Origin: Pseudochelatococcus sp.
GTDB taxonomy: Bacteria > Pseudomonadota > Alphaproteobacteria > Rhizobiales > Beijerinckiaceae
Direction: 5' to 3'
Length of the DNA stretch: 64,000 nt
Assembly (NCBI RefSeq): GCF_050946405.1
Contig: NZ_JBMNUS010000013.1
Location: forward strand, 71,443-135,442
Below are positions 21,664 through 52,625 of the stretch, piece by piece. Each line of letters begins with the position of its first letter. The first letter of the stretch is position 1. A program made the translations under genes and the position numbers. Below the pieces are notes generated by a model. It was given only the letters and a program-made list of their open reading frames with translations, did no database searches and was not told where the DNA came from.

Positions 21664-21711
21664 GTCGCGGGGAGAGGCGGGCGCTTGCGTCGTCATCTCC
21701 CATATCGTTAC

Positions 21712-29400: not shown

Positions 29401-32400
29401 GGCGGGCGGGGCACCGATGTCAACGTGCTGTTCAACCTCGACCGCGGTTTCCGGCTCGATTTCGAGGGATTGGGGCTGACGTGGATATCGCCTCCGGTCA
29501 GCCGGCCGAAAAAGGACCTGTTCCTCAACGTGCTGGAGCTGAACGGCGAAGCGCTGCTCGATCTCGATCATGACGGTGCGCTGGGCGATTCCGCCACGGC
29601 GGAGCGCTGGCTCGATTCCTTCCTGTCGCTGCTCGCCGAGGGGCTGCGCGCGCCCGCGACGCCGATCGCGCGCCTGCCGCTCTCCGCCGCTGACCGGGCG
29701 GCACAGGCGGATGATGTGCGCACGCGCGACGGCTTCGGCGCGCCGGCCGCCATCGGCACGGTCGCGCCGGTGGAGGCGCGCGACGATGCGGGGCTTTGGG
29801 CCGACACGGGGCGGCTCGGCCGGCTGCGGGCGGATGGCGGCGTCGAGGTGCTGGGCGAGGCGCGGCGTTTCCTGCGCACGCGCGGCGGCTGGCTCGATCT
29901 CGACCTTCCGGCGCGGGTGCTGCGGGAACACCCGGCGCTGGCCGATGCCGCCGTGATCGCGGAATCCGGCGGGCTGACCGCCTTCGTGACGCCGCGCGCG
30001 GGCGGGCAGGTCGACGGGCAGGCGCTCGCCGCCTATGCGGCGCTGCGGCTGCCGCCCGAGGCGCGGCCGGCCGCCTTCGTCGTGACGGATATCGCGCGCG
30101 ATGCCGGGGGGCGCGCCCTCCTGCGCGCCGATCACGGCGAGCGTCTCGCCACGCGCGCCCTCACGCCCGCCCGCACCGATGCGGAGAAGGCGGTCGCGGC
30201 GATCTGGGCCGAGGTTCTCGGGCTGGAGGAAGTCGGCGTCCTCGACAGCTTCTTCGACCTCGGCGGTCACAGCCTCAAGGCGCTCGCCATCCTCGCGCGC
30301 GTCGAGGCGCGGCTCGGGCGCACCGTGCGGCTGCGCGCCTTCTTCGAGGAGCCGACCGTGGCGGGGCTCGCGTCACGTCTGGGCGCGGGCGAGGCGCATG
30401 CCGTCATTCCGACCGCGGCACCGGCGGCGCATTATCCGGCGTCGAACGCGCAGGCGCGGCTGTGGATGCTCGACCGGATCGATCCCGGCCTTGCCGCCTA
30501 CAACATCGGCTTTTCGCTGCGCAGCGCCGCGCCTCTCGACGAAACCGCGCTGCGGATCGCGCTGGCGGGCCTCGCCGGGCGGCACGAGAGCCTGCGCACG
30601 GCGCTCATCGACCATGACGGCCTGCCGCGCCAGACGATCCTGCCCGCGTTGCAGCCCGAGCTGCGCATCGAGGATGCGGTGGGCGCGGACGCGGCGGCGC
30701 TCGTCGCGCGGGAGCGGGCCATCGCCGCCGAGCCCTTCGCGCTGGAGCGCGCGCCGCTCTGGCGGGCGGTGCTGCTGCGCGGGGGGCAAGGGGATATCGA
30801 GCCGGCGGGCGACCGTCTGGTGTTCGTGCTGCATCATGCCATTGCCGATGTGTGGTCGGTCGGCGTTTTCGTGCGGGATTTTCTGGCGTTGTACGCAGAG
30901 GCCGGCGGCGCACGGCTGCCGGCGCTGGCGCTGCAATACCGGGATTATGCGGTCTGGCAGGTGGGGCGGCCGGAGCCGCATCTTGACTGGTGGGTCGCGG
31001 CGCTGGCGGATGCGCCCCGGCTGGAGCTGCGGCCCGACCGGCCGCGCCCGCCGCTCAAGACCTTCAACGGCGATCATGTCGTTCTCGATGTGCCGGGGCC
31101 GGTCGCGGCGGCCCTCAAGGCGCTTGCCGCCGTCAACGGCGCGAGCGCGTTCACGGCGGTGGTCGCGGCGCTCTGCAACCTGCTGTGGGAAGAGACGGAG
31201 GCGCGCGACATCGTCATCGGCACGGTGACGGCGGGGCGCGACCATCCGGCGCTCGCGGACCAGATCGGTTTCTTCGTCAACACGCTGGCGCTGCGCGCGC
31301 GGGTGGCGCCGGAGGCGGGCTTCCTGCCGCTGCTCGCGGGCGTGCGCGATGCGCTGCTGGCGGCGGCCGAACATGGCGATACGCCGCTCGACCGGGTGGT
31401 CGAGGCGTTGAACCGCCCGCGCGATCCGGCGCGCAATCCGCTGTTCGAGGTCGTCGTGGTCATGGACGACCGCGAGGAGATCGACCGGCTGCTCGCCGGC
31501 ACCGGCTTCGCGCTCGCGGAAATCGACACGGCGACGGCGCAGTTCGACCTCACGCTTTATGTCACCGACGGCGCGGACGGCATCCGCATCAAGGCGACCT
31601 ACAATACCGACCTGTTCGACCGCGCCCGCATCGAGGGACTGATGGCGCGGCTGGCGGGGCTGATGGCGGGGGCGGCCGCCGATCCGGCGCGCGCGCTCGC
31701 CGCGCGGGCGCAGGGGGGCAGGGCGGCGCATGGTTCCGCGCCTGGCCAACGGCAAGGCTACGCGCCGTCGCGCCATCAGGAGCGGCTGTGGTTCGTGGAT
31801 CACTTCGAGCGCGGCGTGCTCTATCCGTCCGGGCCGACCTATTACAACATGCCGTTCGTGGTGCGCGTCGACGGCGCGGTCGATGCCGCGCGGCTCGCGG
31901 CTGCCGCTGCGGCGCTTGCGGCGCGGCATGAGGCGCTGCGCGCGGCGCTCGTCACGCAGGGCGACCGTCCGGCCGTCGAGGTCGCGGCGGCTGCGGCGCT
32001 GCCGGTTGCGGAGATTGCGGCGCCGGCGGGGGCGGGGCTTGCCGCAGTCGAGGAGGCGAGCCGCGCGGCCTTCGACCTCGATACGCCGCCGCTCGCCCGT
32101 CTGACGCTCTGCCGCGAGGCGGGGAGCGGCGCCTGCTGGCTCGCCCTGACGGTTCATCACGCCATGGGCGACCGGGCGGCGCTGCGCACGCTGGCGGAGG
32201 AACTCGCCCGCCTTTATGCCGACCCGGCCGCCGCCCTGCCGGAAATCCGCCCCTTCGGCGCGGCCCATGCGCTGCCGGAGCGGGCGGTGGAGGCCGGCCA
32301 TGAGGCGGATGCCGCCTATTGGCGCGAGGCGCTGGCGGGCGTTTCCGCGCTCGTGCTGCCGACGGACCGGCCCCGCCCCGCGATCCACACCTTCACGGCG

Positions 32401-35400
32401 GGCCGCGTCGCGGGGCGGCTCGACGCGGCGCTGCGCGGGCGGATCGACGCGCTGGCGGCGGCGCTCGGCGTGAGCCGGGCGGATGTGCTGCGCGCCGGTT
32501 ATCAGGCGTTGCTGCATCGTCTTTCCGGCCAGCGGGATGTCGTCATCGGCGAGACCGTGCAGCCGCCGCAACCGGCGCGGACGGTCGGGCCGCTCGCCAA
32601 TCTCCTGCCCTTGCGGCTCGACGTGGAGGCCGGCGAGGGCTTTGCCGCGCTGGTGCGGCGCGCGGCGGCGCGGCGGCAGGCGGATGCGGCGCATGGCGCG
32701 ATCCCCTTCGATCTGCTGGTGCTGGCGGTGAAGCCGCGCAACGACATGAGCCGCACGGCGCTGTTCGATGTGCTGTTCCACCATGAGAATGCGACCGCCG
32801 CCCTGCCGGCCGGGTGGGCGGCGGTCGACACCGGGCTCGGCTGGGGCAAGTACGATTTCGTGCTGTCCGTGGTGCCGGATGGCGACGGGCTGGCGGTGAG
32901 CCTCGTCTACAACCGCGACCTTTTCGACGCCGCCAGCGCGCAGGCCGTCCACGCGCGCTACGGGCAACTGCTGGCGGCGGCGCTGGCGCAGCCGGAGCGG
33001 CCGCTGTCTGCGCTCGACATCATGCTGCCGGGAGAGCGCGCGGCGCTGCTGGCCGAAGCCGGCGAGGTGGCCGATTACCCGCGCGGCCTCACGCTCACGG
33101 CGCGTTTCGAGGAGATGGCGGCGCGCCACGGGGCGCGCATCGCCGTCACCGACACCGACGGGGAACTGACCTATGCGGCGCTCGACGCGCGCGCCAACCG
33201 GCTGGCGCATCGCCTGCGCGCGCTCGGCGCGGGACCGGAGGCGCTGGTCGGGCTGTTCGTGGGGCGCACCTGGCGCATTCCCGCTGGCATTCTCGGCATT
33301 CTCAAGGCGGGCGCGGGCTATGTGCCGATCGATCCCGCCTATCCCGACGAGCGCATCCGCTTCATGGTGGCGGATTCGGGCATGCGGCTCATCGTCACCG
33401 ACGCTGAAAACGCGGCGGCGGCGCACCGCCTCGGCATTGCTACGGTGGTGATCGATGATCTGGCGGAGGACCTGCCCGTCGCGGCGACACCCGAAAATGC
33501 CGCGCCCGAAAATGCTGCGCCCGAGAACGTCGCTTACGTCATCTACACGTCCGGTTCCACCGGCATGCCCAAGGGCTGCGTCATCGAGCACCGCAACGTC
33601 ATCCAGCTCTTCTTCCACGAGGGGCGGCCGTTCGCCTTCGGGCCGGATGACGTGTGGAGCCTGTTCCACTCCGCCTGTTTCGACTTCTCGACGTGGGAGA
33701 TCTACGGCGCGCTGCTCTTCGGCGGCCGGCTCGTCGTCGTGCCGCAGGCGCTGACGCGTGAGCCCGCCGCCTTTCTGGAACTCGTCGCCCGCGAGGGGGT
33801 GACGGTGCTGAGCCAGACGCCGACCGCCTTTTACGGGCTGATCGAGGCGGCCCGGCAGCGCCCCGGCCTGCATCTTGCGCTGCGCGAGATCGTCTTCGGC
33901 GGGGAAGCGCTGGCGCCGGCCCGGCTTGCCCCGTGGCGGGCGCTCCACCCGGCCGCGCGCCTCGTCAACATGTACGGCATCACCGAAACGACGGTGCATG
34001 TGACGTTCAGGGAGATCGGCGACGCCGAGATCGCGGAGGGCCGCAGCGTCATCGGCCGGCCGCTGCCGTCCTGCGGCGTGTTGCTCGTCGGCCCCGATCT
34101 CGCGCCCTGCCCGCGGGGCGTGGCCGGCGAGATCGTGGTCGCGGGCCACGGCGTCGCCCGCCGCTACCTGAACCGGCCGGAACTCACGGCGGAGCGCTTC
34201 ATCGCGCACCCGGACCTGCCCGGCGGGCGCGTCTACCGCTCCGGCGATCTCGGCCGGATCGGGCTTGACGGCGAGCTGGTCTATCTCGGCCGCATGGACG
34301 ATCAGGTCAAGATACGCGGCTTTCGCATCGAGCCTGGCGAGATCGAGCGCCGGCTGGTCGCGCATCCCGCGATCCGCGATGCGGCCGTTCTCGCCGAGGG
34401 CGGCGAGGGCGGCGAGGGCGCGGCGGGCGAGAGCCTCTGCGCCTGTGTCGTCACCGATGCGCCGCCCGGCCGCGAGGAGCTGTTTCACTATCTGGCGGAC
34501 AAGCTGCCCGACTACATGATTCCGTCGCGCTTCCTGCGCGTGGCGCGCATCCCGCTCACGGCCAACGGCAAGGCGGACCGCCGGCGGCTCGCGGCGGAGG
34601 GCGGCGAGGCGATCGGCGCGGGGGGCGGCGCGGAGGAAGGCCGGGCGCCGCGAACGCCACTGCAAAAGGCGGTGGCGCGCATCTGGTGCGAGGTGCTGGG
34701 CGTGCCGCAGGTGGGGCTCGACGACAATTTCTTCGCGCTCGGCGGCCATAGCCTCAAGGCCAATCAGGTCGTGGTGCGCATCCGCCAGCGCCTCGGCGGC
34801 AGTCTCGACCTGCGCGATTTCTTCAGCGCGCAGACGCTCGCCGTGCTGGTCGAGCTGATCGAGCGGCGCGGGCTCGGCGCGGCGGGCACTATTGCCCCGG
34901 CGCCGTCCGCGCCCGACTATCCGCTCTCCTTCGCGCAGCGCCGGCTGTGGCTGGTGCAGAACATGAACCCCGATAGGGTGGCCTACAACATGGCCGGCGC
35001 CTTCGTCGTGGAGGGGGCCGTCGACCGGGAGCGGCTGGCGGCGGCGTTCCGGGCGCTGGCGGTGCGCCACGAGATCCTGCGCACGCGCTTCGTCTCGCGC
35101 CACGGCGAGCCCCGGCAGGTGGTGGATGCCGGCATCGACGGGCATATGGCGGTGTTCGAGGCCGGCCATGACGCGGGAAGCGGCGGGATGGCGGCCGTGG
35201 AGCGGCTGCTCGCGGCGGAGCTTCGCCATGTCTTCGATCTCGCGCGCGGGCCGCTGGCGCGGGTGCATCTGGCGGAGCTGCCCGTCAAAGGGCACGGCGG
35301 CTGCGCCATCATCATCAACCTGCATCATATCGTCTCCGACGGCTGGTCGGTGACGGTCATGCTGCGCGAGCTGGAGGCGCTCTACCGCGCGGCGCTGGCT

Positions 35401-36354
35401 GCGCCGCAGGCGACGCCGGCGGAGATCGCGGCGCGGGCCGGGCTGCCGGCGCTGCCGGTCCAGTACCGGGACTATGCCTTGTGGCAGCACGGCGAGGCGG
35501 CGGGCGAAGGGTTGCGGGCGGCCCGCTCCTACTGGCTCGCCCGCTTCGAGGACGAGGCGCCGGCGCTGGAACTGCCGGCCGACCGGCCGCGTCCGCATAC
35601 GCCCGGCGGGGCCGGCGCCATCGTGCATGCCGTGCTCGACGAGGAACTGACGCAGGCGCTGAGGGACCTCGCGCGCCGCCACGACATGAGCCTGTTCGGC
35701 GTGCTCGCCGCGCTCGTGCGGGTGCAGCTCGCGCTCCTGTCGGGGCAGGACGACATCACCATCGGCACGCCGGTCGCCGGCCGCAACCTGCTGGAGCTGG
35801 AGGGGCAGATCGGCTTCTACCTCAACCTGCTGGCGCTGCGCGGCCGCATCGGGCCGCAGGATGCCTTCGGCGATGTCCTGAAGGCGGAGCGCACCCTGGT
35901 GCTCGACGCCTTCGCCCATGAAGCCTGTCCGTTCGACCTCCTGGTCGGGGAGCTGGGCGTCACGCCGGAGCGCGGCCGCCATCCGCTTTTCGACGTGCTG
36001 ATCATTCTCCAGAACAACGAGCCCGTGCGCCTCGACCTTGCCGGGAGCCGGGGCGCGCCGCTGCGCGATACCAGCATCAGCGCCAAATACGATCTCAACT
36101 ATATGTTCGAGGACCGGCCGGCGCTCGAACTGCTGCTGGAATACGCGGCGGATCTTTTCGATGCGGACACGGCCCGCCGCATCGCCGGGGATTTCGTCGC
36201 CCTCGCGCGGGCGGTCGCCGCCGATCCCTCCATCGGCGTCGACAGCCTGCGGGATCGCATGCAGCGGGCCGTGCCGCCGCCGGATGCGCCAGCGGCGGAT
36301 GTGCTGGCGCATGACGCGGCGCATGGTGCGGCTTTTGCCGATGACGGGTGGTGA
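21712..36354 (+). CDS. Hybrid PKS/NRPS megasynthetase: FAAL-ACP-KS-AT-ACP-AMT-C-(A remnant)-PCP-C-C-A-PCP-C (about 4880 aa)
   Basis: Uninterrupted 14.7 kb ORF; motifs read directly: FSSGSTGAPKG (acyl-AMP ligase), GFTSL and LGLDSL carrier serines, DTACSS/HGTGT (KS), GHSAGE + HAFH (malonyl AT), GSA-aminotransferase-like PLP domain (YGKVVGGG), four condensation domains with HHxxxD(G) motifs, complete A domain (YTSGSTGMPKG...NGKADRR), FFxLGGHSL PCPs. ATG 21712 (MSATIRQ...) preferred over ORF-track start 21640. Confidence 0.9.
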   Translation: MSATIRQTFPSRSDQPFMCSFKAPSTLNDALVSNAGVSEIGVAGIGDPPRGVTFFGADRQLTHVSYAQLLDRSRRWLWHLTQGGVRPGDEVLIVTDDLPLFTTVFWACVLGGIVAVPVSTPTNDEGALKIARIRGVLRRPWIVSDARVHARLAAVADGIAPERTACAGERSIAVPGVVLDCPAAPVASVAASDVAFIQFSSGSTGAPKGVIVTHANLIANCTAILKGILANAPGENGEAARLLSWMPLTHDFGLIWFHILPTVFGLDHGLVPTKLFVRNPLVWMQAASDMKASVLGGPNFSYRHFLKHFDAGKPRDWDLSPVRVIANGAEPISCELAEEFTAALAPCGLDRGAMTAAYGLAEGTLVVSMAQPGAGLGRISVDRNRVNPGERVAPLDEGDDAAVSFADVGTPLDCVSLRVVDEAGLPCADDVVGRLQITGASVTAGYYNDDEATRAAFTADGWLDTGDLGFMRAGRLVVTGRRKDVIIVNGVNYYPQDIERVAGEAEGLDLNMVVAGAIPRGVLGEDREGVVLFVLFRREVERFLPLAREVRDRVLREIGIPVDRVIPVARIAKTTSGKVQRFQMVGQFVAGAFDEALRALDAADAAEGAALRRAWERGDEAALVAELAAWGARIVPGGALDPGRPLMESGFTSLRLVELMRRIGRALSLDLPVTLAFEQPTLAALAGALVRLRSADAAPAEAPRAAPAAERARIGITGLACRLPGGVESPAGFWRLLEGGVDATAPVAPGRWPAYDASLTVTDRGGYLADIETFPARFFNLTQVEADAVDPQQRLLLMTAWEALEHAGIDPLSLKGSRTGVFVGISPGDYVQAQARAGRLDAIGPHAFLGSATSVAAGRIAYVLGLEGPALAVDTACSSALAALHLAVRALRAGECDRALVAGVNLILGPEMHVGLSRMNALSPAGRCRAFDAAADGYARGEGCVTLVLERLDAGDAPRPLALVRGTGLNHDGASNGLTAPNGAAQRAVIAAALADAGLAPADVDYVEAHGTGTPLGDPIEAMALAEAYGAGRDGELRVGSVKTNIGHLEAAAGLAGLAKAVLALRHGSLPASLHFETPNPLIPWPQLPLRVVDRAEPWPAVAGRVRRAGVSAFGMSGTNAHVIIEEAPPAPVPAHDDARATVLPVSARTPEECAALAERYAAALERADSGRMHDLARTAACGRAAMAHRLAVTGRDPAELAAKLRAKAAAGAGRPDAGAPVVFLLPGQGAHAPEAVRALHARERVFRETLDAADAALEGFLDRRLTDLLLSPEGAPLLGRTAYNQPATVAVSLAVAAMLRAFGVRPDAVIGHSAGEIAAAALAGMLDLPTAVRFAAARGAAMQALDGGAMIAVRAPAQTINDVIAQTLARVEGVGVAAWNAPARVTLSGPREAVARAAAVLREAGARVAELRVAELDVSHAFHSPMMDGALAPIRELAAGLTVSAATGRMISTLTGGPVDAGALRDPAYWARQAREPVAFAAAVSAVGGDAPDRVDPVLIDLGARPVLAPLAAEVLPQARCLAVCDARRPDERLIETLGELFEAGRPVAWPAVFAERPGRLAEAPTYPFIGKTRVLPTAGADSRAGEAQAAGRAEALPVPAATAPVAGREAVAHVIRSVLRGVAGLQPEEVAGDATWFSLGLDSLLIVQLQQALAREYAIDLPLAAVMENGDTLDRLVTLVVERLPRVAQAPVEAPVMETPAAAAAGGEGVEGLLARQIDAMSALFSQQLALLQGGVRPAVSTPAAIPDVAVAGPAPAAPKREIKGLFKALPARREQANPAQEAHVRRLAAAFNARTRSSKEHTAAYRGVYANPRAVIGFRPEWKELNYPLHVERAEGPYVWDIDGHRYVDITMGFGVTLFGHNPPFVREALAAELAAGFPVGPQSARAGRVAAMISAMTGVERVALFTTGSEAVMVALRLARAKTGRRKIVTFVNSYHGTFDGVLAVGWTEGARVTTMPVSEGTPQGMVDDVIVLRYGDPAALDVIRQHLAELAAVVVEPVQSRDPAVQPRAFLHELRALTAQAGVALVFDETITGFRVHPGGAQRHFGIEADIVTYGKVVGGGMPIGVVSGRRHYLDGVDGGDWQYGDDSVPSARTAFVAGTFNNHPLTAAAAEAVLKHLAAEGPQLQERLNARTAAMCAELDALFAAEDVPVRMAHFSSLFRFEFAGDTEILNYHLLNNGVFVWEGRNCFLSTAHSDDDIRFIVEAVRKGIAEMRAGGWLPPSPGRAAPEARQEHGAREEAGPAPLGRGQGEMLALLEARPEATLAYNEMVAFALDGPLDREALRRAFAGLVRRHEALRCAGIDETGWRAAALPPADLPAEEPAEEGAVMARLARELETPFDLQRGPLMRALLLRLAPQRHVVAFTVHHIVADGWSLGLMAGELAALYAAERAGVAAALPPAESFRAFVAWTQGLDGGASPMAEDSAPVVLPAADFPHRASFRGGRVHRRLSAGGREGEGVFDAARRFARAHDTSPFTVLLAAYALLLGRLSDQRRLTIGIPVAGHTEAGLPVMVGQASAVLPLTLELDPQADFAALVAHVKAALADARHGVGGLFTAQGGRGTDVNVLFNLDRGFRLDFEGLGLTWISPPVSRPKKDLFLNVLELNGEALLDLDHDGALGDSATAERWLDSFLSLLAEGLRAPATPIARLPLSAADRAAQADDVRTRDGFGAPAAIGTVAPVEARDDAGLWADTGRLGRLRADGGVEVLGEARRFLRTRGGWLDLDLPARVLREHPALADAAVIAESGGLTAFVTPRAGGQVDGQALAAYAALRLPPEARPAAFVVTDIARDAGGRALLRADHGERLATRALTPARTDAEKAVAAIWAEVLGLEEVGVLDSFFDLGGHSLKALAILARVEARLGRTVRLRAFFEEPTVAGLASRLGAGEAHAVIPTAAPAAHYPASNAQARLWMLDRIDPGLAAYNIGFSLRSAAPLDETALRIALAGLAGRHESLRTALIDHDGLPRQTILPALQPELRIEDAVGADAAALVARERAIAAEPFALERAPLWRAVLLRGGQGDIEPAGDRLVFVLHHAIADVWSVGVFVRDFLALYAEAGGARLPALALQYRDYAVWQVGRPEPHLDWWVAALADAPRLELRPDRPRPPLKTFNGDHVVLDVPGPVAAALKALAAVNGASAFTAVVAALCNLLWEETEARDIVIGTVTAGRDHPALADQIGFFVNTLALRARVAPEAGFLPLLAGVRDALLAAAEHGDTPLDRVVEALNRPRDPARNPLFEVVVVMDDREEIDRLLAGTGFALAEIDTATAQFDLTLYVTDGADGIRIKATYNTDLFDRARIEGLMARLAGLMAGAAADPARALAARAQGGRAAHGSAPGQRQGYAPSRHQERLWFVDHFERGVLYPSGPTYYNMPFVVRVDGAVDAARLAAAAAALAARHEALRAALVTQGDRPAVEVAAAAALPVAEIAAPAGAGLAAVEEASRAAFDLDTPPLARLTLCREAGSGACWLALTVHHAMGDRAALRTLAEELARLYADPAAALPEIRPFGAAHALPERAVEAGHEADAAYWREALAGVSALVLPTDRPRPAIHTFTAGRVAGRLDAALRGRIDALAAALGVSRADVLRAGYQALLHRLSGQRDVVIGETVQPPQPARTVGPLANLLPLRLDVEAGEGFAALVRRAAARRQADAAHGAIPFDLLVLAVKPRNDMSRTALFDVLFHHENATAALPAGWAAVDTGLGWGKYDFVLSVVPDGDGLAVSLVYNRDLFDAASAQAVHARYGQLLAAALAQPERPLSALDIMLPGERAALLAEAGEVADYPRGLTLTARFEEMAARHGARIAVTDTDGELTYAALDARANRLAHRLRALGAGPEALVGLFVGRTWRIPAGILGILKAGAGYVPIDPAYPDERIRFMVADSGMRLIVTDAENAAAAHRLGIATVVIDDLAEDLPVAATPENAAPENAAPENVAYVIYTSGSTGMPKGCVIEHRNVIQLFFHEGRPFAFGPDDVWSLFHSACFDFSTWEIYGALLFGGRLVVVPQALTREPAAFLELVAREGVTVLSQTPTAFYGLIEAARQRPGLHLALREIVFGGEALAPARLAPWRALHPAARLVNMYGITETTVHVTFREIGDAEIAEGRSVIGRPLPSCGVLLVGPDLAPCPRGVAGEIVVAGHGVARRYLNRPELTAERFIAHPDLPGGRVYRSGDLGRIGLDGELVYLGRMDDQVKIRGFRIEPGEIERRLVAHPAIRDAAVLAEGGEGGEGAAGESLCACVVTDAPPGREELFHYLADKLPDYMIPSRFLRVARIPLTANGKADRRRLAAEGGEAIGAGGGAEEGRAPRTPLQKAVARIWCEVLGVPQVGLDDNFFALGGHSLKANQVVVRIRQRLGGSLDLRDFFSAQTLAVLVELIERRGLGAAGTIAPAPSAPDYPLSFAQRRLWLVQNMNPDRVAYNMAGAFVVEGAVDRERLAAAFRALAVRHEILRTRFVSRHGEPRQVVDAGIDGHMAVFEAGHDAGSGGMAAVERLLAAELRHVFDLARGPLARVHLAELPVKGHGGCAIIINLHHIVSDGWSVTVMLRELEALYRAALAAPQATPAEIAARAGLPALPVQYRDYALWQHGEAAGEGLRAARSYWLARFEDEAPALELPADRPRPHTPGGAGAIVHAVLDEELTQALRDLARRHDMSLFGVLAALVRVQLALLSGQDDITIGTPVAGRNLLELEGQIGFYLNLLALRGRIGPQDAFGDVLKAERTLVLDAFAHEACPFDLLVGELGVTPERGRHPLFDVLIILQNNEPVRLDLAGSRGAPLRDTSISAKYDLNYMFEDRPALELLLEYAADLFDADTARRIAGDFVALARAVAADPSIGVDSLRDRMQRAVPPPDAPAADVLAHDAAHGAAFADDGW
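23840..26380 (+). other. domains: ketosynthase (Cys at ~24340) + malonyl-specific acyltransferase (GHSAGE ~25650, HAFH ~25975); no KR/DH/ER
   Basis: DTACSSAL, EAHGTGTPLGDPIE, NIGHLEAAAG; GHSAGEIAAAALAG; VSHAFHSPMM. Confidence 0.85.
27000..28370 (+). other. domain: PLP-dependent aminotransferase (AMT; glutamate-1-semialdehyde aminomutase-like) embedded in PKS
   Basis: HemL-like motifs ...GFGVTLFGHNPPF..., DETITGFR, YGKVVGGGMP; positioned after ACP2 exactly as in mycosubtilin MycA. Confidence 0.8.
28460..30390 (+). other. module 1: C - degenerate A (only ~170 aa A8-A10-like C-terminal subdomain, 29641..30150) - PCP
   Basis: C domain HHIVADGWS ~28825; after C-A linker (LSAADRAAQ) the sequence jumps to an Asub-like stretch (TGRLGRLRADGGVEVLGEA...LPARVLREHPALADAAVI) with no A1-A7 core; PCP FFDLGGHSLKAL ~30255. 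Confidence 0.7.
30420..33010 (+). other. tandem condensation didomain C2 (HHAIADVWS ~30830) - C3 (HHAMGDR ~32155)
   Basis: Two full-length (~430 aa each) C-domain-like regions back to back, each starting with SxAQxRLW-type C1 motif and containing His-motif; no carrier or A domain between. Confidence 0.7.
33090..36351 (+). other. module 2 A-PCP (YTSGSTGMPKG ~33545; FDFSTWE pocket) and terminal C4 (HHIVSDGWS ~35325) that must pair in trans with next NRPS
   Basis: Complete A1-A10 motif set; PCP FFALGGHSLKANQ ~34730; ORF ends in C domain. Confidence 0.8.
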
Positions 36355-36357
36355 GCC

Positions 36358-38247
36358 ATGTGCGGCATCGTGGGATTTCTCGACCGGGATGGCGCGCCGC
36401 GCCCGCACGATCTGCTGCGCCGCATGGCGGAGGCCGTGCGCCACCGGGGGCCGGATGACGAGGGCTTCTTCACCGGCGACGATATCGGTCTCGGGTTCCG
36501 CCGTCTGTCGATCGTCGATCTGGAAGGCGGGCGGCAGCCGATGTTCGCCGGCGACGGGCGTGTGGCGGCCATCTGCAACGGCGAGATCTACAACCACGCC
36601 GAGCTGCGGGCCGATCTCACGGCGCGCGGCCACCGCTTCCGCACGCGCTGCGACACGGAGGTGATTCCGGCGCTGTTCCTCGAATACGGGCTCGACTTTC
36701 CGCGCCGCATCAATGGCCAGTTCGCCTTTGCCGTCTACGATCGGGAGACGCGCCGGCTGGTGCTGGGGCGCGACCATGTGGGCATCGCGCCGCTGTTTCA
36801 TGCCGAGGTCGGCGGGCTGCTGTTGTTCGGCTCGGAAATCCGGGCGCTGCTGTGCCATCCGGGCCTTGCCCGCGATGTCGACCTGACGGCGCTCGACCAG
36901 ATCCTGACCTTTCCGGGGCTGGTGAGCCCGCGCACGATCCTGGCGAACGTGCGCGCGCTGCCGCCGGGGCATCTGCTGGTGGCCGATCCCGGCCGGCCGC
37001 CGCGCCTCGATCGCTTCTGGGATCTCGATTTTCCGCGCCATGATGAGTTTCCGCGCCATGACGAGATCGGCCCGCCCGGCCGGGCGGACGATTACGTCGA
37101 CGAGCTGGACGCCGCGTTGCGGCAGGCGGTGCGCTACCGGTTGCAGGCCGATGTGCCGGTCGCCGGCTATCTGAGCGGCGGCCTCGACAGTTCGCTCGTC
37201 GCCGCCATCGTCGCCGATCTGGAGCCGGGGGCCACGCGGCATACGTTCTCCATCACCTTTCCCGACAGGGCGATCGACGAGCGCGAGCCGCAGCGCCTCG
37301 TCGCGGCGAGGCTCGGCACCGCCCATCACGAGCGGGAGATCGATCCCGCGCGACTCGCCGCCGGGCTCGACCGCATCGTGGGCTGTGCCGAAGCGCCGCT
37401 GCGCGAATCCTATAACGTATGCTCGCTGCATCTGTCGGGCATGGTGCGCGAGGCCGGGCTCAAGGTGGTGCTCACCGGCGAGGGCGCGGACGAGCTTTTC
37501 GGCGGCTATGTGGGCTACAGGCTCGATGCGGAGCGCGCGCCTGACGCGGACGACCCTTACGATCTCGACGCGCTGATCGAGGGCGAGTGGCGCGAGCGCC
37601 TGTGGGGAGACAGCCGTTTCTTCTACGAGAAGGATTATGGCGCGAGCCGCGACATCCGCCGCGAACTCTACGCGCCGGCGCTGGCCGAGCGCTTCGAGGC
37701 GTTCGACTGCCTCGCCCATCCGCTTGTCGACCGCGCGCAGATCGAGGGCCGGCATCCGTTTCATATCCGCTCGTATCTCGATTTCAAGCTGCGCCTGGCC
37801 GATCATCTGCTGGCGGATCACGGCGACAGGGTGAGCTTCGCCAATTCCGTCGAGGCGCGCTATCCGTTTCTGGACATCGGCGTCATCGACGTGGCGCGCC
37901 GCATCCCGCCCGCCCTCATGGTGCATCAGGGCGAGGAAAAGCATATCCTCAAGCGTCTCGCCCGGCGCTACCTGCCGGCGCAGATCGTGGAGCGCAAGAA
38001 GTTCAGCTTCGTCGCCCAGAGCAGCGCCACGCTGCTGCGCGAGGGCGTGCCGCGCGTGCGCGAGGTGCTCGACGAGGCACGCGTCGCGGCGGACGGCTAC
38101 TTCAGCCCGGAGGCGGTCGCGCATCTCAAGCAGCGGCACGCCGCGCCGGGCGCGGAACTCAACCAGACCTTCGAAGACGACTTCCTGATGGTCGCACTGA
38201 CCTTCGGGATCCTGCGCGAACAATTCGATCTGCCGAAACTCTCATGA
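36358..38247 (+). CDS. asparagine synthetase (glutamine-hydrolysing) family amidotransferase, AsnB-like
   Basis: N-terminal MCGIVGF (Cys2 Ntn glutaminase), PP-loop SGGLDSS in C-terminal synthetase domain; starts 3 nt after megasynthetase stop, stop overlaps next NRPS start (ATGA). Confidence 0.85.
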   Translation: MCGIVGFLDRDGAPRPHDLLRRMAEAVRHRGPDDEGFFTGDDIGLGFRRLSIVDLEGGRQPMFAGDGRVAAICNGEIYNHAELRADLTARGHRFRTRCDTEVIPALFLEYGLDFPRRINGQFAFAVYDRETRRLVLGRDHVGIAPLFHAEVGGLLLFGSEIRALLCHPGLARDVDLTALDQILTFPGLVSPRTILANVRALPPGHLLVADPGRPPRLDRFWDLDFPRHDEFPRHDEIGPPGRADDYVDELDAALRQAVRYRLQADVPVAGYLSGGLDSSLVAAIVADLEPGATRHTFSITFPDRAIDEREPQRLVAARLGTAHHEREIDPARLAAGLDRIVGCAEAPLRESYNVCSLHLSGMVREAGLKVVLTGEGADELFGGYVGYRLDAERAPDADDPYDLDALIEGEWRERLWGDSRFFYEKDYGASRDIRRELYAPALAERFEAFDCLAHPLVDRAQIEGRHPFHIRSYLDFKLRLADHLLADHGDRVSFANSVEARYPFLDIGVIDVARRIPPALMVHQGEEKHILKRLARRYLPAQIVERKKFSFVAQSSATLLREGVPRVREVLDEARVAADGYFSPEAVAHLKQRHAAPGAELNQTFEDDFLMVALTFGILREQFDLPKLS

Positions 38248-41200
38248 CAGGACAAGGCCCCGTGCACTCCACCATGCAGCCTCCCGTGCAGCGTCCCATG
38301 CAGCGTAGCTCCTACGTCGACCGGTTCGAGGAGAATGCACGGGCGCGCCCCGCCGCCGCCGCGCTGGCGACGGCGGCGGGTGAAGTGTCCTACGGCGCGC
38401 TCGACGCGCGGGCGCAGCGCCTCGCCCGGCGGCTCGCGCGGCTGGGGGCGGGGAAGGGCGTCATCGTCGGCCTGTTTCTGGACGCCGACGAAACCTATGT
38501 CGCGGCGCTGCTCGGCGCCGGCAAGACGGGCGGCGCCTTCCTGCCGCTGCCGCCGGACCTGCCGCCGCTGCGCGTCGCCGCCTGCCTCGCCAAAGCGGAA
38601 TGCGGGATCGTCGTGACGCTGGGCCGCCACCGCGCCGCGCTGGATGCGGCGCTGGCTGAAGCCGGCCGATCGGTCGCGGTCATCGAGGCGGATGCGCCGG
38701 ACGATGCCGGCGACGCCGCGCCGGTGGCGCGCGCCATCGGCCCTCACGATCCCTGCTACGTCATGTTCACGTCGGGCTCCACCGGCGCGCCGAAGGCCAT
38801 TCTGGGGCCGCATCGCAGCCTCTCCCACTTCCTGCGCTGGGAGGTCGGCGAGTTCGGGCTGGATGAGACGGTGCGCGGCTCGTGGCTCGCGCCCGTCACC
38901 TTCGATGTCAGCCTGCGCGACATCCTCGTGCCGCTCATGGCCGGGGGCACGCTCTGCATTCCCGATGCCGAGACGCGGATGGTGCCGCGCAAGCTGGTCG
39001 ACTGGCTGGCGCGCGAAAAGGTGACGCTGGTGCATTGCGTGCCGACGGTGCTGCGCCTGATCACGCGCGAGCTGGCCGACCGCGGCGGCGATGCCGGCCT
39101 TGCGGTGCGTCATCTGCTGGTGGCGGGCGAGCCGCTGCTCGGCGCGGATGTCGCGGCCTGGCGGGCGGCGGCAGGCGGGCGCGCCGAGGTCGTGAACCTC
39201 TATGGCCCGTCGGAAACCACGCTGGCGAAGGTGTTCCACCGCATCGGCGAATTGCCCGCCGATCCGCGGCGGGTGCTGCCCATCGGCCGGCCGCTGCCCG
39301 ACACATCGGTGCTCGTTCTTTCCAACGGCCGGCTTTGCGGCCCGCAGCAGATCGGCGAGATCCACATCCGCACCGCCTATCCCTCGCTCGGCTACCTGAA
39401 CGACGCGGCGCTGACGGCGGCGAGCTTCATCCGCAATCCGCTCGGCAACGACGATGCCGACATCGTCTACAAGACCGGCGATCTGGGGCGCTACCTGCCG
39501 GACGGCACCGTCGAATGCCTCGGCCGGCAGGACAATCAGGTCAAGGTCAATGGCGTGCGCATCGAGCTTGCCGAGATCGAGGTCGCGCTGCGCGCCGTCG
39601 CGGGCATCGCCAAAGCGGCGGCGGCGGTGCATGCGGGCGGCGGGGCCGATCCCGTGCTCGTGGGTTATTATGTGCCGGATGCCGGCGCGGCGCCGTCGGC
39701 GGAGGCGATCAAGGCGCAGCTCGGGCGCATCCTGCCGGCGGCCATGCTGCCGCACGTGCTGGTGCGTCTCGACGACCTGCCGCGCACCATCAGCGGCAAG
39801 CTCAATCGCAAGGCGTTGCCGCGCCCGGAGGAGCTGTTCTACGCCGAGCATGCCTATGTGGCGCCGCAGGGCGAGACGGAAGACAAGCTCGCGGCCATCT
39901 GGCGCGAGATCTTCGGCCTGACGCGCGTCGGCGTCGAGACCGCCTTTCACGATTTCGGCGGCGACAGCCTGCGGGCGATCCGCGCCGTGCAGAAGATCTT
40001 CCAGACATTCTCCGTCGAGATCAGCCTGAAGGATTTTCTCGCCGCCGCGACGATCCGGGAACTGGCGCGCCTCGTCGCGGCCGCAGTCCCCGCGCCGGTG
40101 AGCGCCATTGCGCGCGCGGCCGATGCGGCAAGCTATCCCGCCACCCCGGCCCAGAACCGGCTGTGGCGTCTCGACCGGCTCGGCATCGCCCCCACCGCCT
40201 ACAATCTGACGGAAGCGTGCGAGCTGCTGGGGCCGGTGAACGAGGCGGCGCTGGAGCGCGCCTTTCGCGACCTGATCGGCCGCCACGAATCGCTGCGCAC
40301 CACATTCGAGGAGGATGCGGACGGCAACGCGCGCCAGATCGTGCACCATGACACGCCCTGGCGGCTCGAACGCGTCGACCTGCGCCGCCATGCGGAGCCG
40401 GACCGCGCCGCCGCGCTGCTGGCGCGGGACAATGCCGGGCATCGCTTCGACCTGCATCGCGGCCCGCTGCTGCGCGTCGTGCTCGCCCGCCTGCCGGATG
40501 CGGAGGGCGCGGCGCGGCATGTGCTGCTGTTCAACATTCATCACATCGTCGCCGACGTGTGGTCGCTCGGCGTGCTGGTGCGCGAGGTGGCGGCGCTCTA
40601 TGCGGCGGCACTCGCCGGCCGCGACGCCGGCCTTGCGCCGCCGGCGCTGCAATTGCGGGATGTGGCCGTGTGGCAGGCCGGGCGGGCGGCCGCCGGCGCG
40701 CTGGACGGCGACCGCGCCTATTGGCTGGAGCGCTTCTCCGCGCTGCCCGCGCCGCTCGACCTGCCGGCCGACCGGCCGCGCCCGCCGGTGCAGACCTTCA
40801 ACGGCACCACGCGGCGCTTCCGCCTGCCGGCGGACCTGACCGGGCAGCTCGACGGCCTCGCGCGCCGGCACGGCACGACGCGCTTCGCCGTGGTCACGGC
40901 GCTGACGAAGGCGCTGCTGCACCGTTATACCGGACAGACGGATATCGTCGTCGGCAGCCCCGTCGCCGGCCGCACGGATGCGGCGCTGGCGGACCAGATC
41001 GGCTATTACGTCAACACGCTCGCGCTGCGCGACACTGCGGAGGCGGGAGCGCGCTTCGCCGACCTGCTCGCGCGCGTGGCGGCGACGGTGCGCGAGGGGC
41101 TCGCGCATCAGGATTACCCGTTCGACGCGCTGGTGCAGGAACTGCCGCTCGAACGCGACATGAGCCGCTCGCCGCTGTTCGACGTCATGGTCGTCGACCA

Positions 41201-44200
41201 CGCCTTCGAGGATGGCGACCTGCGGCTGGAGGGCGTGCGCGTCATGCCCTTCGGCGACCGGAACGCCTGGAACTTCAGCCGTTTCGATCTCGTCTTCCAT
41301 TTTCAGGACGAGGCGGACGAGCTGGTGCTCGATCTCAACTACAACACCGACCTGTTCGACGATGCGCGCATCCTGCGCATGGGCGCGCATTTTGCGGAGC
41401 TGGCGCGCGCCGCAGCCGGCGACGAGTCGCAGGCTGTCGGGGAACTTAACCTGCTGCCGGCGGACGAAAGCCGGGAACTGGCCGCTTTCACGCACGGGCC
41501 GGTCGTGGCGCGCGATGCGGCGGCGACCATCGTCTCGACCTTCGTGGCGGCGGCGCGCCGTCACGCCGGGCGCCCCGCCGTCATCGATGCCGGAGGGCGC
41601 GTGCTCTCCTATGGCGCGCTCGACGGGGCGACGGACCGGCTGGCGCACGATCTCATCGCGGCGCATGGCGTCGCCCCCGGCGAGCGCGTGGCGGTGTTCG
41701 CGAGGCGCACGCCGGAATCGGTCGCCGCCATGCTCGCGGTGATGAAGGCCGGCGGCGTCTATGTGCCGATCGATCCCGACTATCCGGCCGCGCGGATACG
41801 GTTCATGCTGCGCCAGGCCGGCTGCCGGCTGGCGCTCGCCGACAGCGGGGCGGCCCCGGTCGCGGATGTGCAGGTCGTCGCCGTCGCGCCCCGGCTCGCG
41901 GCCGGCGACGCGGCGCAGCCCGTCGACCGCAGCGGCGCGGGCGAGGCGGCCTATGTGATCTTCACCTCCGGGTCGTCGGGCGAGCCGAAGGGGGTGGCGG
42001 TCGCCCACGGCGGTTTCGTCAACATGTCGTCGGGGCAGATCGCCCTTTTCGGACTCACGCCCGAGGACCGGGTGTTGCAGTTCGCCTCGCCGTCCTTCGA
42101 CGCCTCGCTCGCCAACATGTTCATGGCGCTGTTCAGCGGCGCGGCGGTGGTGCTGCCGTCTGCCGGCGACATCAAGAACACGGCCGATTTCCTGGCGCTG
42201 CTGGCGCGGAGCGGCACCACGGCGCTCACCCTGCCGCCGACCTATCTGCGCGCGCTGCGGCGGGCGGAACTGGCCGGGGTGAGGGTGCTCATCACGGCGG
42301 GCGAGGAAGCGCCGGCCGCCGACCTGCTCCATTACGCGCAGCGGCTCGCCGCCTTCAACGCCTACGGCCCGACGGAGTTTTCGGTCTGCGCCACGGTGCA
42401 TGAGGTCAGCGAGCGAGACCGCGACCGCCTGCGCCTGCCCATCGGCCGGCCGTTGCCGAATACGAGCGTGCATGTTCTCGATGCCGCGCTCAAGCCCGTC
42501 CCGGTCGGGATCGCGGGGGAAATCTGGCTCGGCGGCAGCGGGCTCGCGCTCGGCTACGAGGGCGATGCGGCGCAGACCGCCGCGCGCTTCGTCACGCATC
42601 CGCACACGGGCGAGCGCCTCTACCGCACCGGCGATCGCGGCGCGTGGCGCGAGGACGGCGCGGTCGATTTCCTCGGCCGCGCCGACGATCAGGTGAAGGT
42701 GGCGGGCCACCGCATCGAGCCGGGCGAGATCGAGGCGGCGATGCGCGCGGTGCCGGGCGTGCGCGACGCCCATGTCGCCACAGTGGCGCGGGCCGACGGC
42801 TCCGCCGCGCTCGCCGCCTGGTACTGCGCGGACGAGCGCGTGGAGCTGTGGCCTTCGGTGGCGGAGTTCTACGTCTACGACGACATCGCCTATGGCAGCA
42901 TGGCCGCCGACGAGGGGCGCAACCGGCGCTACCGCGAGGCTTTCGCGCGCCACCTGCCCGGCAGGACGGTGGTGGATATCGGCACCGGGCCGGTGGCTAT
43001 CCTCGCGCGCCTCGCCATCGAGGCCGGCGCGCGCAAGGTCTACGCCATCGACAGGCTGGAGGCGACGGCGCGCAAGGCGCGGGAGACCGTGGCGGCGCTC
43101 GGCCTCGACGACCGCATCACGGTGATCCACGGCGACGCCCTGACCCTGGAGCTGCCCGAGACGGTGGATTTCTGCATCTCCGAGATCGTCGGCGCCATCG
43201 GCGGGGCGGAGGGCGCGGCGCGCATCATCAACGGCGCGCGCCGCTACCTGAAGGACCCGGCGGCCATGCTGCCGCAGTTCAGCGACACGCGCATCGCGGC
43301 GCTGGCGCTGCCTCACGACCGGCTCGCGCCGGGCTTTTCGGACATCGCGGCGCATTACGTCGACAAGATCTTCGCGGAGGTCGGCCAGCCGTTCGACCTG
43401 CGCCTGTGCCTCAAGAACCTGCCGCGCGAGGCCATCGTCTCCACCGACGCGCCGTTCGAATATCTGGACTACACGCGCGAGGTGCCGGTCGAGGCGACGC
43501 ACACGGTCGAACTCGTCGTCACGCGGGACAGCGAGATCACCGGCTTCCTCGTCTGGCTGCGGCTCGGCGTCGATGCGGATGCGGTGGTGGATATTCTCGA
43601 CAACCCCGGAAGCTGGCTGCCGGTGTGGCTGCCGGCCTTCGCCGTGCCGGTCGCGGTGGCGGCGGGCGACCGCATCGCCATCACCATCGCGCGGCGGCTT
43701 TGCGGCAACGGTTTCAACGTCGACTTCTTCCTCGACGGCACGGTGACGCGGGCGGCCGGCGAGGCGGTGCCGTTCGCCTGCCGCAGCGCGCATTTCGGCG
43801 ACGGCTTCCGCCGCACGCCCTTCCATGCGGGGCTGTTCGCGGGGGAAGGGGTGCCGCGCTTCGAGGCGCCGACGCCGGCCGTGGTGCGCCGTCACCTGCT
43901 GGGCGCGGTGCCGGCGCATGCCGTTCCGTCCTTCCTCGTGCCGCTCGACAGGCTGCCGGTGACGATCAACGGCAAGATCGATCGCGCCGCCCTGCCGGCC
44001 CCCGGCGATGTCGCGGAAGGAGCGCGCCGGGGAGAGGCGCTTGCGCCGCAGACGCCGCTGGAGCGGCAGGTGCTGGATGTGTGGCGCGAGATCATGAGCC
44101 GGCCGGACATGACGGCGGGCGATGATTTTTTCAGCATGGGCGGCGATTCCATCCGCGCCATCCAGATCGTCTCGCGCCTGCGCCAGCTCGGCTGGAAAGC

Positions 44201-45683: not shown

Positions 45684-45723
45684 GGAGCGGAACGATGCGC
45701 GCCGGGCGGCTCGGGAGGGAGCC

Positions 45724-47364: not shown

Positions 47365-47410
47365 ACAGGCGGTTGCGTTTTGACGAGAGGCATGCAGGGG
47401 AATGACGATC

Positions 47411-51541: not shown

Positions 51542-51882
51542 GGCAGGGCGACCCGTACCCCCGGCGGCGGGAAACCAACGGCGCATGGCCGCAGCAGAGA
51601 CGGACGGTTCCGCTCCTTCTTCGCCAGCAGCGGTAATGTCTCTCTCCATTGCCATCATGTCTTCGGGGTATCGGATCGTGCGCATTATTATAGCAGGCGA
51701 CAAAGGTATAGCTCTCGACTCCGATGGTCAACTATGATAGGTGTAGGATATTACTTTCATGAAATAGAAAGTGTTCTGGACAGTGTGCGCCGGTTGCGTC
51801 GGGGCGGGGCCTGAAAGCGGTGGGCGGTGGACTGTCACGGTTGCGAATTCCATCTCGTTTCATACTCCCGGAGGAGAGCATC

Positions 51883-52512: not shown

Positions 52513-52625
52513 GGCTGCGAGCGCGTCGGCATCGTGCCGGCGCGCCTTGCCGGAATGGGCGCCTTCCGATCGTAACGGGTGGGAGACACGCTGACGCCGG
52601 GGCGGGTTGACGAGAAAGAACGCGA

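Follow-up and report, generated by a model that had tools for sequence, protein, structure and literature searches.

An AsnB-family amidotransferase gene within a split nonribosomal peptide synthetase module, conserved with one lineage of adenylation–carrier didomains and possibly acting on a carrier-bound acidic residue

AsnB-like tailoring enzymes are already known from biosynthetic clusters. The AsnB-like enzymes ActJ and MatC have been proposed to amidate the free carboxyl group of thioester-activated diacids, 'as in oxytetracycline and sanglifehrin A' (PMC5719088). AsnB/LtsA homologues of Firmicutes and Actinobacteria, annotated as asparagine synthase, are reported to amidate the meso-diaminopimelate (mDAP) of peptidoglycan (PMC8554201, PMC5485061). 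In cystobactamid biosynthesis, an ATP-binding domain tailors Asn bound to the peptidyl carrier protein (PCP) domain of the stand-alone adenylation (A)–PCP protein CysH; a module whose own A domain is inactive is supplied in trans (PMC7966384). Here we analyse an AsnB-family gene between two nonribosomal peptide synthetase (NRPS) genes in a 64,000-nucleotide stretch of Pseudochelatococcus sp. (contig NZ_JBMNUS010000013.1, positions 71,443 to 135,442), called the window below, to which all coordinates refer. The gene belongs to an AsnB clade that is tied to one NRPS A–PCP lineage in at least three phyla, and in the window it lies inside a split module. No description of this pairing of asnB with an A–PCP didomain was found in full-text literature searches, which left most subscription papers beyond reach, so that a prior description is possible. 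The two features on which the argument turns are as follows.

36358–38247, + strand: asnB, gene for an AsnB-family glutamine-dependent amidotransferase of 629 aa (Pfam, NCBIfam, homologues, AlphaFold2 model)
38325–40076, + strand: A2–PCP5 didomain, the conserved partner of asnB, with Arg or Lys at position 239 and His at position 278

The window AsnB shares with E. coli AsnB (1CT9) and human ASNS (6GQ3) the two-domain organization, the Cys1 Ntn glutaminase, the SGGLDSS PP-loop and the equivalents of E348, D351/E352 and K449. As a long-type bacterial enzyme it differs from E. coli AsnB, to which it is 28% identical: approximately 70 aa are inserted, the C-terminus is another one, and the enzyme has its place in a separate NRPS clade. 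The region aligned with E. coli D384/R387, residues that we take to bind aspartate, was not conserved, although the gapped alignment is uncertain there. The best solved match was TsnB9 (7YLZ), a tailoring enzyme that is also of the long AsnB type and whose glutaminase is active. The acceptor of TsnB9 is a free polyketide acid, onto which it transfers hydroxylamine, whereas the window enzyme, 26–27% identical to it, is without an N-oxygenase partner.

OxyD (malonamyl starter), its sanglifehrin analogue and ActJ/MatC resemble the window enzyme in setting, as AsnB-like proteins with intact glutaminases that are encoded in thiotemplate clusters and are proposed to amidate acids bound to coenzyme A or a carrier at the free carboxyl group (PMC5719088). 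According to their descriptions they act on polyketide synthase (PKS) starter or alkylsuccinyl units, whereas the partner in the window is a mid-chain NRPS A–PCP. No case of such a mid-chain partner selecting an alpha-amino acid for an AsnB was described in the literature searched. The mDAP-amidating enzymes, likewise compared by description, have a cell-wall role without carrier-protein or NRPS context, unlike the window AsnB. The AMDH domain of CysH and the corresponding AlbIV insert (cystobactamid, albicidin) are similar in tailoring Asn/Asp side chains in an ATP-dependent manner on a dedicated A–PCP. The CysH domain works in cis, carries an SGGKD motif, has no glutaminase and dehydrates or isomerizes Asn, whereas the window encodes a separate, full AsnB that would make an amide.

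The assembly line as a whole is of the kind generally known from iturin- and mycosubtilin-type synthetases, in which a beta-amino fatty acid is loaded by fatty acyl-AMP ligase (FAAL), acyl carrier protein (ACP), ketosynthase (KS), acyltransferase (AT), a second ACP, aminotransferase and condensation (C) domains, and the proteins are split between C and A domains. In iturin lines the first module is complete and activates Asn, and asnB is absent, whereas in the window the A core of the first module is lost, two C domains (C2–C3) stand in tandem and asnB occupies the split between C4 and A2.

The window has a G+C content of 68–71%, and long open reading frames (ORFs) arise on both its strands by chance. 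Since such ORFs are frequent in DNA of this composition, an ORF alone was taken as little evidence. Antisense ORFs of 2089–2616 aa overlap the NRPS genes (30373–38223, 38097–45860 and 21808–28077, all on the – strand), the first of which, at 2616 aa, spans the asnB region; these are by-products of high-GC codon usage and not genes. The + strand asnB is a real gene, as judged from profile E-values (GATase_7, PF13537, 5e-41; Asn_synthase, PF00733, 3e-76) and from conserved homologues. More than 7800 homologues were found, and the top match covered 100% of the length; asnB is therefore intact.

The protein begins with MCGIVGF, which holds the catalytic Cys2 (codon 36361–36363), and its PP-loop SGGLDSS lies at aa 273–279 (37174–37194). 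The glutaminase residues R49 (RRLSIVD), N74-G75-E76 (CNGEIYN) and D99 (RCDTEV; E. coli D98) were present, and the glutaminase positions were invariant or more than 90% conserved in an alignment of 54 sequences. Alignment with E. coli AsnB identified E375 in TGEGADELFGGY as the equivalent of E348 and K528 in EEKHILK as that of K449; the equivalents of D351/E352 were also found. By these residues, both catalytic sites are intact and the enzyme is a member of the class II glutamine amidotransferase family. The sequence-only reading, made before any comparison with other sequences, had recognized an intact class II amidotransferase from Cys2 and SGGLDSS, and the Pfam and NCBIfam matches, the alignment and the full homologue coverage agree with it.

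AsnB scored 434.7 bits with the NCBIfam asparagine synthase equivalog TIGR01536 (cut-off 267). It did not reach the AsnB model PRK09431 (295.9 vs 499), nor the models for lasso cyclases (202 vs 525), macrolactam cyclases (74 vs 300), the XrtA/PEP-CTERM amidotransferase TIGR03108 (397.4 vs 816.9) or the NAGGN amidotransferase TIGR03104 (334.2 vs 570.1). Membership in TIGR01536 fixes no substrate, because homologues with the same annotation are reported to amidate peptidoglycan mDAP (PMC8554201, PMC5485061). The AlphaFold2 model (pLDDT 90.7, pTM 0.92) showed the two-domain AsnB fold. In a Foldseek search it matched TsnB9 best (TM 0.77), then E. coli AsnB (1CT9; 0.67) and human ASNS (0.64), with beta-lactam synthetase and carbapenam synthetase (CarA) as the weakest matches of this fold (0.57 each). 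Ranking by sequence against solved structures gave the same order, from TsnB9 (200 bits) through AsnB and ASNS to beta-lactam synthetase (47 bits).

In a neighbour-joining tree of 95 AsnB family members (100 bootstraps), the NRPS-linked AsnBs were monophyletic (98/100) and the subclade with the architecture of the window was recovered in 94/100. E. coli AsnB was a distant outgroup, and a stand-alone AsnB from Omnitrophota was nested inside the NRPS-linked clade. This comparison with housekeeping AsnB had been set beforehand as a check, and it separated the window enzyme from the latter.

Relatives with the layout of the window were found by exact-protein look-ups. The order megasynthetase, AsnB, NRPS2, ABC transporter recurred in seven other loci (L004, L006, L007, L008, L009, L014, L015), which span Alpha- and Gammaproteobacteria. 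Their AsnB identities were 51–79%: a soil metagenome contig (79%), Rhizobiales bacterium 32-66-11 (73%), Azospirillum sp. TSH100 (66%), Endothiovibrio diazotrophicus (65%), a 740-kb metagenome contig (61%), Thiorhodococcus fuscus (54%) and a 4.65-Mb assembly (51%). The Azospirillum locus, L006, extends over about 138–160 kb of LGQX01000002.1 (GCA_003115975.1). Domain mapping gave the same architecture in 7/7, including a module without an A domain, and the same A2 specificity code (DVRHLALLAK; DVRHFALLAK in L014). AsnB homologues of Methylobacter and Magnetospirillum (52%) adjoin KS–AT–ACP–aminotransferase hybrids in a different layout. The synteny in seven other loci and the 98/100 clade establish asnB as a dedicated part of the assembly-line operon and not a chance neighbour, in agreement with the sequence-only reading. 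That reading had also linked asnB to the module without an A domain; the conserved partner across phyla was instead the A2-type A–PCP directly downstream.

This partnership was followed in a scan with one genome per species, which yielded at least 80 loci and samples the family, the closest relatives not being among the matches listed; NRPS/PKS domains were mapped in all scan loci by phmmer with the window's own domains as queries. Among the matches listed, all homologues of at least 46% identity were in an NRPS context. NRPS/PKS genes were present in 22/23 of the AsnB clade contexts examined, and an adjacent A domain of the RH/KH type in 18/23 (the window and 17 others), with at most one small gene, for a racemase or a TauD protein, in between. 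An A2-like domain stood next to asnB in Acidobacteriota (L017, L018, L020, L022, L023 and L049), in Streptomyces (L021 and L087) and in L041; it was often part of a free-standing didomain, and a PCP followed it wherever the contig was long enough. The codes found elsewhere (DPRHVALLAK, DGRHVALMAK, DVRHFALLAK, DARHLALMTK, DARHLALMVK, DGKHVAIITK, DGKHVALVTK, DARHLSLMTK and DARHASLMTK) follow a common pattern, D-x-(R/K)-H-x-(A/S)-L-x-x-K, which applies to Proteobacteria and Acidobacteriota as well as to Streptomyces.

The RH/KH A domains formed a single clade across phyla in the A-domain tree, and this lineage is co-inherited with AsnB. Pairwise distances of the two were correlated (Mantel r = 0.87, 0/5000 permutations), also when near-identical architectures were reduced (r = 0.68, 1/5000); host kinship contributes to the correlation. 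Streptomyces locus L021 grouped with a proteobacterial subclade in both the AsnB and the A-domain tree, and a transfer of the cassette is therefore indicated.

Two kinds of small gene accompany the pair. In L018 and L021 asnB is separated from the A domain by a racemase gene, and in L096 such a gene closes the operon. These racemases all carry the GGMGP and CTE(I/L) motifs; those of L018 and L096 scored above the cut-off of the aspartate racemase model TIGR00035 and that of L021 below it (71.8 vs 93.1), and the one of L096 nearly reached the cysteate-racemase model. Near the cassette of L087 there was a weaker racemase match (E 8e-18), in a place where two ORFs were negative with Pfam and one of them overlapped most of the match in another frame. 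In L022, a TauD/TfdA dioxygenase gene (Pfam) separates asnB from the A–PCP; its homologues occur in L049, flanked by two KH-type modules, and in L015, downstream of NRPS2. Enzymes of the TauD/TfdA type hydroxylate Asp or Asn in other NRPS pathways.

The L096 operon, on Streptomyces sp. NBC_01216 plasmid NZ_CP108680.1 (L096 20001–26693), is annotated as asnB, A–PCP (DARHASLMTK), a condensation protein and an amino acid racemase. Its neighbours (tyrosine 2,3-aminomutase, a 4-HPA-3-hydroxylase-like protein, an AMP-binding protein and a C domain) resemble a pathway of the beta-tyrosine type. The operon would be a handy minimal system for the cassette.

Specificity codes were read by alignment at the ten Stachelhaus positions, with a position mapping that follows GrsA-PheA as generally known and that recovers the Thr code DFWNIGMVHK exactly in three relatives. 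The four A domains of the cluster gave the following codes.

A1, DFWSVGMVHK: Thr
A2, DVRHLALLAK: no match to any code we know of
A3, DAATIAAVCK: aromatic, Tyr/Phe-like
A4, DLTKLGHIGK: Asp, 9/10 to the canonical DLTKVGHIGK

None of the four was an Asn-type code; the canonical Asn code, attributed to Stachelhaus in 1999, is reportedly DATKVGEVGK. Canonical Asp pockets have K278 with H322, Asn pockets K278 paired with E322, and Glu pockets K239. The A2 pocket is basic across the lineage, with Arg/Lys at 239 and His at 278 and no acidic residue among the ten. To our knowledge, the signature D-x-(R/K)-H-x-A-L-x-x-K fits no described specificity code, and full-text literature searches for DVRHLALLAK, DARHLALMTK and similar codes returned no matches. 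The microcystin domains McyB2 and McyE, whose codes we take to be DARHVGIFVK and DPRHSGVVGK (iso-linked D-MeAsp and D-Glu; racemase McyF), presumably share D-x-R-H. These two codes had no full-text matches, and the solved McyB structure is that of module 1. Because the pocket is basic and because a racemase and a dioxygenase occur in the cassette, A2 is a candidate loader of a small, aspartate-type acidic amino acid.

In L021, a second domain of the A2 lineage (region 19049), away from asnB, has R239/H278 replaced by T/Q (DATQLALLAK). It may represent a natural variant in specificity and so be of use in decoding the pocket.

Taken together with the intact enzyme, these observations led us to hypothesize that AsnB amidates the Asp-type residue loaded by A2, probably while the residue is carrier-bound. 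We hold this tentatively, as something close to an even call. A2, with Arg239, His278 and no acidic residue, would select a small Asp-type acid and tether it to PCP5, and may also load the PCP3 of the module that lacks an A core in trans. The AsnB-like enzyme would adenylate the free carboxylate of the residue at the PP-loop site, and ammonia derived from glutamine at Cys2 would displace AMP to give a carboxamide. The product would be Asn or, with a beta-linked residue, isoAsn. Isoasparagine, with the amide on the alpha-carboxyl, is a possibility should the A domain activate the carboxyl of the side chain, as the McyB2 and McyE domains presumably do. Once amidated, the residue would enter a beta-amino-fatty-acyl lipopeptide that ends with Asp and is released by a thioesterase (TE), in the predicted order beta-amino fatty acid, X, Thr, X', D-(Me)aromatic, Asp, where X' is the A2 residue. 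The substrate, the timing on the carrier and the loading of PCP3 by A2 are what we infer here from sequence. The position of asnB beside the carrier and the loader of its presumed substrate is that expected of carrier-protein-dependent tailoring amidotransferases. The sequence-only reading had offered three functions, namely Asn supply, amidation of PCP-bound Asp/Glu and lactam formation; of these, amidation of carrier-bound Asp/Glu agrees best with the new evidence.

A broader claim, which we consider possible and put forward with more reserve, is that AsnB and the R239/H278 A–PCP form an old, horizontally mobile two-component cassette that amidates an acidic amino acid in trans while it is tethered to a PCP. 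The cassette, which an Asp-type racemase or a TauD hydroxylase often accompanies, would thereby place an amidated aspartate on the assembly line, as an NRPS counterpart of the tRNA-dependent transamidation of Asp to Asn.

Several observations weigh against amidation on the carrier. The window AsnB passes the cut-off of an equivalog named asparagine synthase (TIGR01536), and one homologue in the clade, from Omnitrophota (L013, 52%), is stand-alone. An adjacent RH/KH A domain was missing from L010, L011 and L019 within the sequence examined, and the contig of L016 was too short. The window cluster itself has neither a racemase nor a TauD gene. A chimeric query of AsnB with A2–PCP5 found no AsnB–A–PCP fusion among close relatives. 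The substrate of A2 is read solely from pocket residues and neighbouring genes, and an R/H pocket could also hydrogen-bond a carboxamide. Finally, neither the C-terminal A subdomain (Asub) remnant that precedes PCP3 nor PCP3 itself was closer to the corresponding parts of A2 (A2sub) or to PCP5 than to other domains.

Some of these points suit a different role, in which AsnB, as a genuine asparagine synthetase, provides free L-Asn (or D-Asn, where a racemase yields D-Asp) as a dedicated precursor supply and A2 is an unconventional Asn-specific domain inherited together with its supply gene. The TIGR01536 score (434.7 vs 267), the conservation of all Asn-synthesis residues that can be aligned with E. 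coli AsnB and the housekeeping-like, stand-alone L013 favour such a role. So does general knowledge: sub-clusters of a supply gene and its cognate A domain are frequent in NRPS clusters, and the iturin family, similar in architecture, is Asn-rich. The partner domain argues otherwise, with Arg/Lys239 and His278 and no acidic residue to balance them, in contrast to K278 and E322 of the canonical Asn code, and clusters with canonical Asn domains are usually without asnB. Strict adjacency to one A–PCP across phyla and a sister clade linked to an ACP and a ligase suggest carrier-bound chemistry, and Asp-type racemases fit Asn supply less well. Asn supply, which the sequence-only reading had listed, is thus weakened by the lack of an Asn-type code in the cluster, the basic pocket and the Asp-racemase-family genes of other loci. 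We keep it as the main rival and rate it as rather unlikely. If it held, the finding would be a modest one, a gene for precursor supply paired with an A domain that is specific for Asn in an unusual way. Amidation could also take place after assembly or late on the line, at an Asp side chain, at the C-terminus provided by A4 or at the A2 residue after its condensation. The line ends with a canonical Asp module (A4, DLTKLGHIGK), the nearest solved relative, TsnB9, acts on a free finished acid (trichostatic acid; PMC5719088), and AsnB homologues are reported to act on peptidoglycan mDAP (PMC8554201, PMC5485061). The conserved partner is the RH-type A–PCP and not the Asp/TE module, the annotated 42-kb stretch with the Streptomyces plasmid operon shows no module of the canonical Asp type, and no NRPS3 ending in a TE was visible in the approximately 10 kb downstream of AsnB in Azospirillum. 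Such late amidation is improbable.

The remaining rivals fare worse. A nitrogen nucleophile other than ammonia (hydroxylamine or hydrazine from modified glutamine, in the manner of TsnB9 or FzmA) would give a hydroxamate or hydrazide. The top match in the Protein Data Bank was indeed the hydroxyamidotransferase TsnB9 (200 bits, TM 0.77), at an identity of just 26–27%, and no N-oxygenase or modified-donor gene was seen in the window or related cassettes, which makes this very improbable. Intramolecular lactam or beta-lactam formation, as by beta-lactam synthetase, carbapenam synthetase or lasso cyclases, has the AsnB fold in common with the window enzyme. Lactam formers are without a working glutaminase nucleophile, whereas Cys2, R49, N74-G75-E76 and D99 are intact here and do not vary within the clade; beta-lactam synthetase matched at 47 bits, it and CarA at TM 0.57 vs 0.77 for TsnB9, and the lasso-cyclase score was 202 vs 525. 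The sequence-only suggestion of a lactam is accordingly scarcely credible. Generic models do annotate the protein as asparagine synthase, as they would an ordinary housekeeping asnB placed here by chance. Its position is kept in at least seven other loci, 22/23 contexts contain NRPS/PKS genes, bootstrap support for the clade is 98/100 and the protein shares just 28% of its residues with E. coli AsnB; chance placement retains almost no probability.

If amidation on the carrier is correct, the amidation of a carrier-bound acidic residue would be a new in-trans tailoring reaction in NRPS enzymology. It would explain the widespread signature D-x-(R/K)-H-x-A-L-x-x-K and allow better structure prediction for orphan clusters of Proteobacteria, Acidobacteriota and Streptomyces. 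The order asnB, then RH-type A–PCP, is a handle for genome mining, and a portable amidation cassette would be useful for engineering.

Among the matches listed, homologues at 32–40% identity formed other clades (L025–L094). About 31 of the 58 sister loci listed, from many phyla, have genes for an AsnB-like protein, an ACP (approximately 80 aa) and an AMP-ligase (approximately 520 aa) within 4 kb, with a gene for a NadE-like PP-loop enzyme in many of the loci as well (for example L036 10001–14733). The ligase is similar to TIGR03098 at scores below the cut-off. The chimeric query found a single fusion, of AsnB with an AMP-binding domain, in Myxococcota (P0228, 1186 aa, 31% identity). These loci and the fusion show that AsnB-like proteins of this branch are repeatedly paired with a carrier protein and the enzyme that loads it. 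The AsnB–ACP–ligase–NadE-like cassette would be a non-NRPS version of the same chemistry. The label 'asparagine synthase (glutamine-hydrolyzing)' is unreliable for the NRPS-linked clade and for this sister clade.

The upstream gene junction is as the sequence-only reading gave it: the NRPS1 stop (TGA, 36352–36354) is followed by a 3-nt spacer (GCC) and the asnB ATG, and a spacing of 1–7 nt is kept in relatives. That reading also had the asnB stop overlap the NRPS2 start in an ATGA and inferred coupled translation. The ATGA exists (38244–38247), but ATG 38244 is probably not the NRPS2 start, as judged from the N-termini of relatives. These read MQRxSY/F..QFE and begin 9–14 nt past the asnB stop; the motif maps to ATG 38298 in the window, whereas GTG 38262, with the Shine-Dalgarno sequence GGAcaag, is the positional homologue of the relatives' start and was picked by the gene caller on the identical contig. 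The discrepancy arises because of a partly repeated insertion: the NRPS2 5' end (38248–38300) contains a 36-nt in-frame extension that is absent from relatives, a near-repeat atgcagcctccc gtgcagcgtccc atgcagcgt, which creates alternative in-frame starts at 38244, 38262, 38274, 38286 and 38298. The real start is probably GTG 38262 or ATG 38298. The two genes are thus tightly linked (14–51 nt), and coupling through an overlap is not supported.

The assembly line and the genes around it comprise the following features.

21640–36354, + strand: NRPS1, a hybrid FAAL–PKS–aminotransferase–NRPS of 4904 aa (mechanical ORF start; likely start ATG 21712 or 21763)
21892–26241, within NRPS1: FAAL 21892–23052, then ACP, KS 23848–24942 and AT 25378–26241, followed by a further ACP
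27196–29682, within NRPS1: class-III aminotransferase 27196–28272 and C1 28480–29682, followed by the Asub remnant and PCP3
29707–30384, + strand: remnant of a module without an A core, with degenerate Asub 29707–30174 (AMP-binding_C 23.7 bits, below the cut-off) and PCP3 30190–30384 (PP-binding)
30427–36246, within NRPS1: C2 30427–31698, C3 31753–33051, A1 33106–34572, PCP4 34669–34860 and C4 34915–36246
38262–45683, + strand: NRPS2 (start GTG 38262 or ATG 38298; ATG 38244 overlaps the asnB stop)
38325–41480, within NRPS2: A2 38325–39800, PCP5 39882–40076 and C5 40131–41480
41547–45680, within NRPS2: A3 with a methyltransferase insert 41547–44048, PCP6 44067–44252 and an epimerization (E) domain 44301–45680
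45724–47364, + strand: cyclic-peptide export ABC transporter (TIGR01194, 313.8 bits vs cut-off 286.2)
47402–50836, + strand: secreted S12 hydrolase of the beta-lactamase fold with an autotransporter beta-barrel (signal peptide; SASK at 101, YSN at 213)
51820–54318: membrane-protein genes (DUF697 and SPFH/Band_7) that separate NRPS3 from the exporter and hydrolase genes
54332–58387, + strand: NRPS3, with C7 54419–55768, A4 55835–57283, PCP7 57365–57556 and TE 57644–57985

Thus asnB sits exactly in the split module C4 | A2–PCP5. The sequence-only reading had placed it next to a module without an A domain. Such a module is real (C1, degenerate Asub, PCP3) and does not adjoin asnB, lying about 6 kb upstream and two modules away. 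Its Asub remnant (NRPS1 aa 2690–2845) keeps only the A7–A10 region, with the A10 lysine replaced, and PCP3 is intact. The degenerate remnant is kept in L004, L006, L008 and L009. The module is presumably functional and loaded in trans, because the remnant is conserved down to relatives of 61% identity. A2 may be the loader, as a candidate that is unsupported by the domains themselves because they show no special similarity to PCP5 or A2.

C2 and C3 (30427–33051) are tandem C-type domains with no carrier domain between them. C2 has the motif HHAIADV, and C3 a degenerate HHAMGDR, which is HHAxxD(K/R/P) in most relatives checked. The last domain of NRPS2 carries the E motifs ESHGRE, RTVGWFT and FNYLG. 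The A3 insert region (42531–44123) gave a weak Methyltransf_25 match (34 bits) and faint PRMT5/PrmA matches; it may methylate the aromatic residue at N or at O. NRPS3 follows the NRPS2 E domain and is probably the end of the assembly line.

The ABC exporter follows NRPS2 in L004, L006, L007, L008 and L009. The fusion of an S12 protein (class C beta-lactamase/DD-peptidase fold) to an autotransporter, with SxxK and YxN intact, also occurred near the exporter in L004, L007, L009 and L011. The hydrolase could be a maturation (prodrug-type) or resistance peptidase. An N-acyl-D-Asn prodrug logic, considered for the S12 peptidase and the ABC transporter, was not supported: no E domain follows PCP3 (C2 is C-type), and the cluster has no Asn code. 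In Methylobacter L010, a Band_7 gene (14949–15827) lies about 3 kb from the AsnB homologue.

The ORFs at 50858–51814 and 58441–59295 are Arg-rich and without family hits and were treated as spurious. The alpha/beta hydrolase at 59292–60407 has a signal peptide and an AHSMG serine motif; it was considered as a cytoplasmic shuttle of the SyrC/CysB type and rejected in that role. The genes upstream of 21.6 kb serve ordinary transport and catabolism. Directly before the cluster, the region 16570–19602 contains an Lrp/AsnC-type regulator (– strand), an alanine racemase (17096–18346), the sole racemase in the window, and a D-amino-acid dehydrogenase-like FAD enzyme. These genes form a dadAX-like catabolic unit that probably has no relation to the cluster.

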